From the sequence record ON210139.1: a DNA stretch of 64,000 bases. One strand, 5' to 3'. Shown piece after piece: positions 594-1,684 of the stretch. Made by a program: the position numbers and the translations under genes. This DNA comes from Escherichia phage EC128. Numbering within the stretch: the first letter of the stretch is position 1; each line of letters begins with the position of its first letter. The notes beneath the pieces were generated by a model. That model had not been told where the DNA came from. It searched no databases and worked only from the letters and a program-made list of their open reading frames with translations.

Positions 594-703
594 AAAATGC
601 GCCTTTAAACGGTAACGTTTATCGAAAACTCCTTTAATTGCTGGAAAGTCCTTTATAGGAAAACTAGCAGCCAAGGTTTTGCTTGCACCTTTAATTAGTA
701 TAA

Positions 704-711
704 TATAAATA
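704..711 (+). promoter_or_regulatory. candidate late promoter (TATAAATA) inside intron, upstream of endonuclease ORF
   Basis: Exact TATAAATA 28 nt upstream of the ORF start; a MotA-box-like TTGCTTGCA at 676-684 and TATAAT at 699-704 lie just upstream. Confidence 0.45.
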
Positions 712-738
712 TGATTATACTTTTAAGAGGATGCACAA

Positions 739-1548
739 TTGAACTATAGAAAAATTTGGATAGATGCTAACGGACCTATACCTAAAGATTCTGATGGAAG
801 AACATACGAAATCCATCATAAAGACGGTAACCGTGAAAATAATGATTTAGATAATTTGATGTGCCTTTCTATACAGGAACATTATGATATACATTTAGCT
901 CAAAAAGATTACCAGGCTTGTCATGCTATAAAGCTTAGAATGAAATATTCTCCTAAAGAAATTTCTGAATTAGCTTCTAAAGCCGCAAAATCTAGAGAAA
1001 TCCAGATTTTTAATATCCCTGAAGTACGAGCTAAAAATATTGCCTCTATTAAATCTAAGATAGAAAATGGTACATTTCATCTTTTAGACGGTGAAATACA
1101 GCGTAAATCTAATTTAAATAGAGTTGCATTAGGTATACATAATTTTCAACAAGCTGAGCATATTGCAAAAGTTAAAGAACGCAATATTGCAGCTATAAAA
1201 GAAGGTACTCATGTATTTTGCGGTGGTAAAATGCAGTCAGAAACTCAATCAAAACGGGTAAATGACGGTTCACATCATTTCTTGTCAGAAGATCATAAGA
1301 AAAGAACATCAGCAAAAACATTAGAAATGGTTAAGAACGGGACCCATCCTGCACAAAAAGAAATCACATGTGATTTCTGCGGTCACATTGGTAAAGGTCC
1401 TGGATTTTATCTAAAACATAATGACAGATGTAAATTAAATCCAAATAGAATTCAATTGAATTGTCCATATTGTGATAAGAAAGATTTATCACCATCAACA
1501 TATAAACGATGGCACGGCGACAATTGCAAAGCAAGGTTCAACGACTAG
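739..1548 (+). CDS. intron-encoded HNH homing endonuclease with C-terminal Cys-rich zinc-finger region (I-TevIII-like, full length 269 aa)
   Basis: HNH motif EIHHKDGNRENNDLDNLMCLSIQEHYDIH; C-terminal CDFCGH..CPYCDK..HGDNCK; only start codon upstream of the motif is TTG739 with SD AAGAGG at 725-730. Confidence 0.85.
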   Translation: MNYRKIWIDANGPIPKDSDGRTYEIHHKDGNRENNDLDNLMCLSIQEHYDIHLAQKDYQACHAIKLRMKYSPKEISELASKAAKSREIQIFNIPEVRAKNIASIKSKIENGTFHLLDGEIQRKSNLNRVALGIHNFQQAEHIAKVKERNIAAIKEGTHVFCGGKMQSETQSKRVNDGSHHFLSEDHKKRTSAKTLEMVKNGTHPAQKEITCDFCGHIGKGPGFYLKHNDRCKLNPNRIQLNCPYCDKKDLSPSTYKRWHGDNCKARFND

Positions 1549-1684
1549 TCTTCGGACGTAGGGTCAAGCGACTCGAAATGGGGAGAATCCCTCTGGGATT
1601 GTGATATAGTCTGGTCTGCATAGTAATATGTAGCAGTTCATAAGAGAACGGGTTGAGAATTAGCGAGCTCAATCGAACATAACG

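Follow-up and report, generated by a model that had tools for sequence, protein, structure and literature searches.

In the current study, we analysed a window of 64,000 nucleotides from Escherichia phage EC128 (sequence record ON210139.1), and we conclude, with a probability of about 93%, that positions 594-1684 are the full-length RB3-type group I intron in the nrdB gene of a T4-like phage (Tequatrovirus), encoding an intact I-TevIII homing endonuclease that starts at a TTG codon. The element is the already known RB3-type 'wild' form of the T4 nrdB intron, first described in 1991 (Eddy & Gold, as cited in PMC2988022), and it is an ordinary member of its kind with nothing new to it. Computed in this analysis, and reported below, were the insert boundaries and the ribozyme fold, the promoter sequences and the hairpin, and the intact open reading frame (ORF) with its start codon and motifs.

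The nrdB gene is split by an insert of 1091 nt (window 594-1684, plus strand, as for all features described here) that follows T593 and has G1684 as its terminal base. The boundaries were set by comparison with intron-less nrdB alleles, and the joined exons are collinear with five of these (T2, ACG-C40, Lutter, F13076 and phage 107). Exon 1 (1-593) is cut at its 5' end by the window edge, and its last base, U593, takes part in the U-G pair of helix P1; in exon 2 (1685-2187) the frame resumes at 1685 and reaches its stop at 2187. When 593 is ligated to 1685 in silico, the result is an unbroken NrdB (...RFYVSFAC|TFNFHKNMEIMEG..., with the spliced reading ...RFYVSFACTFNFHKNMEIMEGNAKIM...), the in-silico deletion of 594-1684 yields a protein that reads ...ALEAIRFYVSFAC|TFNFHKNMEIMEGNAKIMKFIARDEQLH... 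across the junction, and the predicted junction in the spliced RNA is ...UUUGCGU|GUACCUUU.... Position 592 is G in all intron-plus alleles and A in all five intron-less alleles. The earlier note, made from the letters alone, had proposed an nrdB group I intron of about 1.09 kb, and this is borne out by the length of the insert, by the reading frame restored on its removal and by the group I fold. The gene order of the window runs from nrdB down to baseplate genes; judged by this order, td and nrdD lie outside the window, in which neither tRNA genes nor further Rfam families were found.

The insert is assigned to the group I (subgroup IA-type) self-splicing introns, in the RB3 form, based on the Rfam model RF00028, the identity with RB3 and the intron-less alleles. 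Searches of the whole window with RF00028 gave no match, neither at the gathering threshold nor at E <= 0.001, and the intron was found only when the search was limited to 450-1850, with 33.9 bits (gathering score 50). The score falls below gathering because the 0.8-kb ORF interrupts the P6 loop (L6). A natural ORF-less variant, PD112, with an intron of 304 nt whose junction lies between two ACAATTG repeats, scores 68.6 bits over model positions 1-253 (gathering 50). Its 3' non-coding part is identical to that of the window (1549-1684, 136/136); in the 5' part, the two are separated by a single mismatch and 6 gapped positions.

All helices from P1 to P9, the placement of which with Rfam had been suggested as a check, could be assigned, partly through the alignment of PD112 and in some cases by hand. 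P1 (590-602) is formed by four pairs (G590-C602, C591-G601, G592-C600 and the closing U593-G599), and the 5' splice site directly follows U593; P1 and G1684, the last base of the intron, are invariant across 11 copies. P2 (606-621) is a hairpin with a GUAA loop. The alignment of the ORF-less variant provides the 5' strand of P3 (629-634, pairing with 1580-1585), P4 (639-644 with 664-669) and P5 (649-660), and within this region (629-669) every pair is standard and invariant. The 5' strand of P6 (676-682) pairs with 1526-1532, with the ORF sitting in the P6 loop. The 3' half of the ribozyme (1543-1684) was placed by the Rfam alignments and ends at G1684. It comprises P7 (1543-1547 with 1607-1611), the extent of which was set by hand; the 3' strand of P3 (1580-1585), P8 (1587-1599) and P9 (1616-1633), all from the Rfam alignments; and P7.1 (1548-1557), P7.2 (1561-1574), P9.1 (1636-1649) and P9.2 (1651-1674), assigned by hand. 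The 3' end of the ORF overlaps the ribozyme core over 1526-1548, a stretch that includes the 3' strand of P6 (1526-1532), J6/7 and the 5' strand of P7 (1543-1547), and the stop codon UAG (1546-1548) falls at the P7/P7.1 boundary.

Across the 11 copies, which represent at least three genera, 99.7% of the cells of the 87 proposed pairs are standard, compared with 38-48% when the partners are slid. Compensatory changes are present in P2 (A-U to G-C, in S16 and SEA1, which also carry a C-G to U-G change) and in P9 (A-U to G-C, in T4), and wobble transitions in P2, P6 (U677-G1531 to U-A, in T4 and BiddleMM4) and P9; as the copies are 89-100% identical and only two pairs changed on both sides, the support from covariation is thin. 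Compared with the copy of the Salmonella phage SEA1 (Gelderlandvirus), which is 89% identical, the ribozyme core has 10 differences in 281 nt and the ORF a dS of 0.57, that is, the core is far more conserved than synonymous sites. The T4 nrdB intron is known to splice itself in a GTP-dependent reaction. The core of the window intron is nearly identical to that of T4, and by analogy it would be expected to self-splice in the same way, with the intron RNA folding as a group I ribozyme, excising itself and ligating U593 to G1685, by which NrdB would be restored. Splicing, like cleavage, homing and promoter use, is here carried over from the literature on RB3 and T4.

The I-TevIII gene (739-1548) consists of 269 codons starting with TTG. 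Its HNH catalytic domain (748-882, residues 4-48) is recognized by Pfam HNH_3 (PF13392) with 48.7 bits against a cut-off of 24.8 (E = 6e-13) and contains H26, H27, N39 and H48, while the DNA-binding domain (1369-1527) consists of two zinc fingers, both intact, at residues 211-231 (CX2CX12HX3C) and 242-263 (CX2CX13HX3C). The protein is identical to RB3 I-TevIII at 267 of 269 residues, with Y23 for D and K73 for E, the latter being unique to the window copy among the aligned copies. The ORF is thus the intact 269-aa HNH endonuclease that the earlier note had seen in it. A Pfam match to FlgM (26.3 bits, cut-off 25, residues 74-114) was taken as chance, the segment being a helical linker rich in lysine and serine. 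The RB3 enzyme has been purified, mapped and mutagenised, and the RB3 intron was found to be mobile (Robbins 2007, PMC1865063). In that enzyme, the substitutions H26A, H27A, N39A and H48A abolished cleavage, and mutations of C211/C214 and C242/C245 reduced both binding and cleavage (PMC1865063). The enzyme encoded in the P6 loop carries its HNH nuclease domain at the N-terminus and its DNA-binding domain, with the two zinc fingers, at the C-terminus.

The insert has also been read in other ways. In many records, two nrdB CDSs and a separate endonuclease are annotated, which would make the insert a free-standing endonuclease gene and nrdB two separately translated halves (nrdB_1 and nrdB_2) with no intron. 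We regard this as extremely improbable, since the flanks of the insert form a complete group I core that exceeds the Rfam gathering score when the ORF is absent, and since both the U-G pair at the splice site and the final G of the intron are in place. Besides, the sole stop codon met by exon 1, at the junction, arises inside the intron; the 5' end of exon 2 has no start codon, and the annotated ATG1708 would remove conserved residues; and in the GenBank reference records of T4 and RB3 nrdB is a joined CDS. Some automated annotations also assume that the endonuclease starts at the ATG of codon 41 (window 859), giving a protein of 229 aa. The SEA1 record has a 690-nt CDS (229 codons plus stop) beginning at that ATG, and ATG is used as a start codon much more often than any other. 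Such a protein would nevertheless lack H26, H27 and N39, each of which is needed for cleavage, and the Pfam HNH_3 domain begins ahead of codon 41, at residue 4. Codons 2-40, which would then lie outside the gene, show 10 synonymous and 7 non-synonymous differences from SEA1, 12 of the 17 at third positions, and their dN/dS of 0.10 is like that of the remaining gene (0.12), pointing to purifying selection. A start at codon 41 is thus very unlikely, if somewhat less so than the absence of an intron.

A start of I-TevIII at TTG739 is well supported by these sequence comparisons and by the surroundings of the codon. In this frame, the stop codon TAA (724-726) is followed by GAG GAT GCA CAA and then by TTG739, which is the sole ATG, GTG or TTG between that stop and codon 41, the first in-frame ATG, located beyond three of the four catalytic residues. 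The Shine-Dalgarno sequence AAGAGG (725-730) lies exactly 8 nt before the TTG, a position that also argues against a start at codon 41. Numbered from the TTG as codon 1, and in no other numbering, H26, H27, N39, H48, C211, C214, C242 and C245 fall at their published positions. The TTG is retained in 10/10 aligned copies that keep the region, and five records (RB3, JK45, fPS-2, S16 and BiddleMM4) annotate the CDS start there; the GenBank CDS of RB3 I-TevIII (KM606994) converts exactly to window 739-1548. This agrees with the previous proposal that TTG739, 8 nt after AAGAGG, is the only possible start: no ATG or GTG lies upstream, and the interval between TAA 724-726 and TTG739 is free of the in-frame ATG that would have spoken for another start. 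A direct demonstration of UUG initiation was not found in the literature covered, which did not include the original description of 1991, and a 2010 review speaks of 'AUG' as the initiation codon of the three T4 intron endonucleases alike (PMC2988022).

The sequence ahead of the ORF holds the elements expected of a T4 intron endonuclease. A middle-promoter-like site (680-704) consists of TGCTT (680-684), a 14-nt spacer (685-698) and the -10 sequence TATAAT (699-704); the MotA-box consensus is unmatched at its last two positions, and in fPS-2 these 25 nt are annotated as 'predicted middle promoter'. The T4 late-promoter consensus TATAAATA is matched at 704-711 and is degraded in the ORF-deleted copies FL44, PD112 and AV116. 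Both a MotA-box-like sequence and TATAAATA had been noticed before just upstream of the gene, and both are found at these positions. A generic scan for sigma-70 promoters and terminators, which is ill-suited to T4 middle and late promoters, gave 7 sites against 8.3 expected. Moreover, a hairpin covering the Shine-Dalgarno sequence and the ATG of a mini-ORF (684-735) is predicted by folding 676-760, and it would be present in read-through pre-mRNA only. Its minimum free energy is -16.5 kcal/mol (z = -3.4), and none of 200 shuffles folded as well. The hairpin pairs AAGAGG and the adjoining AUGCA with 684-692, and of its 18 pairs, 15 are invariant, 2 show changes on a single side, and in 1 the only exceptions are unpaired cells; RNA from 717 onward has no significant structure (z = -0.17). 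Finally, a putative I-TevIII operator that mimics the homing site is located at 677-694, where 16 of 18 positions match the intron-less exon junction. This is the single match with 2 mismatches in the window, with 0.04 expected by chance, and a putative I-TevIII operator over the promoter was proposed by Edgell 2010 (PMC2988022).

Positions 594-738 match T4 exactly save for a 1-nt indel, with an identical promoter sequence, and the literature on T4 regulation therefore applies to this region. In the T4 introns, internal middle and late promoters have been located by primer extension, and the ribosome-binding sites of the endonucleases are sequestered by a stable hairpin on long transcripts (PMC2988022). 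In the window, the Shine-Dalgarno sequence of read-through pre-mRNA from upstream promoters would likewise be locked in the hairpin at 684-735. Transcripts from the internal middle-like or late (TATAAATA) promoter would begin within the hairpin, without its 5' arm, and have the ribosome-binding site free, and translation would begin at UUG739, 8 nt past AAGAGG. Given the hairpin and the internal promoters, I-TevIII would be made late and in small amounts. By analogy with T4, the layout of promoters and hairpin agrees with the published model of delayed expression (PMC2988022), and the delayed, tightly controlled expression suggested by the earlier note fits both this model and the ribosome-binding-site hairpin predicted in the window.

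The mini-ORF whose ATG lies in the hairpin (ATG CAC AAT TGA, 731-742), which encodes MHN and the stop codon of which overlaps TTG739, had been reported previously and is present in the sequence. It might act on I-TevIII synthesis, as the UUGA overlap is reminiscent of the AUGA-type overlaps of stop and start codon in translational coupling and the arrangement of mini-ORF and TTG is kept in 10/10 copies. That the weak UUG and the overlapping AUG mini-ORF form a deliberate extra brake, as the sequence might suggest, is in our view unlikely; if true, the brake would complement the timing of the promoters, the hairpin that covers the ribosome-binding site and a possible autorepression through the putative operator 677-694. 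We give marginally less credence still to the specific mechanism in which the mini-ORF is translated from AUG731 and termination at UGA742 is coupled to re-initiation at UUG739, attenuating I-TevIII further. The AUG abuts the Shine-Dalgarno sequence with zero spacing, which by established knowledge is unfavourable for initiation; U732-A735 are paired in the conserved hairpin stem, which explains the conservation without translation; and a three-codon ORF is expected by chance, so that its presence alone means little. The mini-ORF is probably incidental and without function. Less probable than either of these roles, though not as remote as a start at codon 41, is that the window copy is intact but dead or immobile, so that it would be passed on by vertical descent alone or mobilized in trans by the free-standing endonuclease MobE encoded next to it. 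The purified RB3 I-TevIII was low in both specific activity and affinity, and homing went undetected in an earlier study (PMC1865063); the T4 I-TevIII is inactive, and the T4 intron moves only in trans via MobE (PMC2790892); and K73 sets the window copy apart. Nevertheless, I-TevIII-dependent homing of the RB3 intron was shown experimentally, at a level >40-fold above that of the T4 intron (Robbins 2007, PMC1865063), and every catalytic and zinc-finger residue is intact in the window copy. The dN/dS of 0.12 across the ORF indicates selection for function, the occurrence of the intron in several genera at 89-99% identity indicates horizontal spread, and copies that lose function visibly decay by deletion. 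We infer from these sequence features that the window copy is active, in which case the repair of an I-TevIII break in a target would copy the intron into that target (homing). The suggestion that the intron may still be mobile gains from the analogy with the experimentally homing RB3 intron, from which the window intron differs by only 3 nt.

In its non-coding parts the intron does not differ from that of RB3 (145/145 and 136/136), and the ORF matches RB3 at 807/810 nt, with 3 differences and 2 amino-acid changes. By megablast, the 2.3-kb region occurs at 97-99% identity in many Tequatrovirus genomes, including RB3, RB5, RB6, RB7, RB9 and RB10, and the records of the RB phages annotate the inner ORF as 'I-TevIII: homing endonuclease' and nrdB as a joined CDS. 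Among the matches listed, the closest copy is that of Shigella phage JK45 (99.8% over 540-1740, with 268/269 residues of the protein identical). The full-length intron is present in about 84 of the 540 records matching the 540-1740 query, a T4-like class covers 60% of the query and one class covers 35% (PD112); among the matches listed, most of the remaining records match flanking exon sequence only. Intact forms were found in at least two named genera and in an unclassified Klebsiella phage. A scan of IMG/VR with the protein returned one locus, with a match spanning only 314 nt. Overall, the copies show the expected life cycle of a homing endonuclease, with intact forms, intron-less alleles and no fewer than three distinct deletion derivatives. 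Many deposited genomes misannotate the locus, giving either two nrdB genes and a 'hypothetical protein' or an endonuclease shortened so as to begin at the ATG of codon 41, and the evidence presented here favours a joined nrdB CDS and a TTG start for such annotations.

Among known systems, the nrdB intron of RB3 is the same as that of the window in host gene, insertion site, length (1091 nt), ribozyme, promoter and hairpin region, and in the position, TTG start and length of the ORF. It differs in 3 nt of the ORF (Y23 for D and K73 for E in the window), and the window genome is another Tequatrovirus isolate. The nrdB intron of T4 has the same insertion site, promoters, hairpin and, save for the 1-nt indel, the same 5' 145 nt, but it carries a 493-nt deletion and its I-TevIII is defective, whereas the ORF of the window is intact. 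By the same boundary convention the T4 intron measures 598 nt, and the deletion junction reads GATGGAAGAACATA|AGAAAAG, between the near-repeats GAAGAACATA (window 797) and GAAGATCATA (window 1288). The deletion takes out the HNH domain and shifts the frame, so that the frame of the TTG stops at the junction after 22 codons; the annotated T4 ORF of 97 codons uses an out-of-frame ATG (= window 764) and extends into the C-terminal part with the zinc fingers. The shorter T4 intron with a truncated I-TevIII, to which the earlier note had compared the present one, is indeed a 598-nt intron with an ORF broken by this deletion.

The td and nrdD introns of T4, which encode I-TevI and I-TevII, are also phage group I introns with the endonuclease ORF looped out of the core, and they have similar internal middle and late promoters, a hairpin sequestering the ribosome-binding site and an operator resembling the homing site over the promoter (PMC2988022). 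I-TevI and I-TevII nevertheless differ from I-TevIII in being GIY-YIG rather than HNH enzymes, in their host genes and in ORFs that have no sequence relationship to it, and autorepression is known for I-TevI only. I-HmuI of SPO1 and other intron-encoded HNH enzymes share with I-TevIII an N-terminal HNH module followed by an extended DNA-binding region, as well as the location in a phage group I intron. However, I-HmuI nicks one strand only and also cuts intron-containing DNA, whereas I-TevIII, acting as a dimer, cuts both strands and binds through two zinc fingers (PMC1865063).

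The group I intron of nrdB is shared across phage genera: the identical insertion site is occupied by the same intron in SEA1, S16, AV116 and Klebsiella phage Biddle_MM4. The intron copies of Gelderlandvirus (89% identity) and of Biddle_MM4 are full length, and the copy in Mosigvirus is a deleted form. Across genera, the synonymous sites of the open reading frame (ORF) encoding the homing endonuclease I-TevIII have diverged (dS of about 0.57), whereas the ribozyme core has remained nearly constant.

The endonuclease gene looks to have decayed repeatedly across the deposited copies. 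At least three different kinds of ORF deletion were found in deposited intron copies (columns 245-750 of our alignment of intron copies; window 797-1317). T4 and FL44 have a deletion junction in common, at GAAGA(A/C)CATA repeats. The deletion in AV116 has a separate junction, where AAGAACAT is repeated at window positions 798 and 1302, and that of PD112 represents a third junction, distinct from both. In the same alignment, the late promoter TATAAATA is altered or missing in FL44, PD112 and AV116. The PD112 intron (positions 655-958 of its nrdB locus, 304 nt) is a natural form without an ORF, in which I-TevIII is wholly gone but the ribozyme and the predicted hairpin at the Shine-Dalgarno region are retained, and it scores 68.6 bits with the Rfam group I intron model RF00028. 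This ORF-less intron is the product of a deletion between two ACAATTG repeats, equivalent to window 735-741 and 1520-1526.

Intron presence is also associated with a single base of exon 1. The alanine codon at window 592 is GCG in all 11 intron-containing alleles and GCA in the five intron-less alleles examined. This base, at exon 1 position -2 relative to the insertion site, pairs as G592 with C600 within the 4-bp helix P1, and an A at 592 would result in an A-C mismatch. The published I-TevIII cleavage site is at -14/-16 from the insertion site (PMC1865063); since base 592 is located between the two, it would be co-converted during homing. A hypervariable patch of roughly 70 nt was also observed in exon 1, 80-150 nt upstream of the intron (window about 445-515), where T4, T2, S16 and RB3/window types cannot be aligned with each other and the flanks are conserved; the patch in the window is of the RB3 type.

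The locus is inconsistently annotated across records, e.g., OQ927978 (SEA1), MK962757 (JK45), NC_054943 (fPS-2) and PP400790 (FL44). Often, nrdB is given as two separate CDSs instead of a join, and in some records the endonuclease is a "hypothetical protein" or has its start placed at ATG codon 41; the FL44 record has four small antisense "hypothetical" CDSs spanning the intron. A marginal Pfam match of I-TevIII to the anti-sigma-28 factor FlgM (26.3 bits, cut-off 25; window 958-1080) covers residues 74-114, in the linker that connects the HNH domain to the DNA-binding domain, and is probably a compositional chance match.

The ATG annotated in T4 as the start of a defective 97-codon ORF is also found in the window, at 764. 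Because this same ATG opens an out-of-frame ORF of only 28 codons within I-TevIII here (764-850), the T4 "ORF" is a frame chimera made by the deletion.
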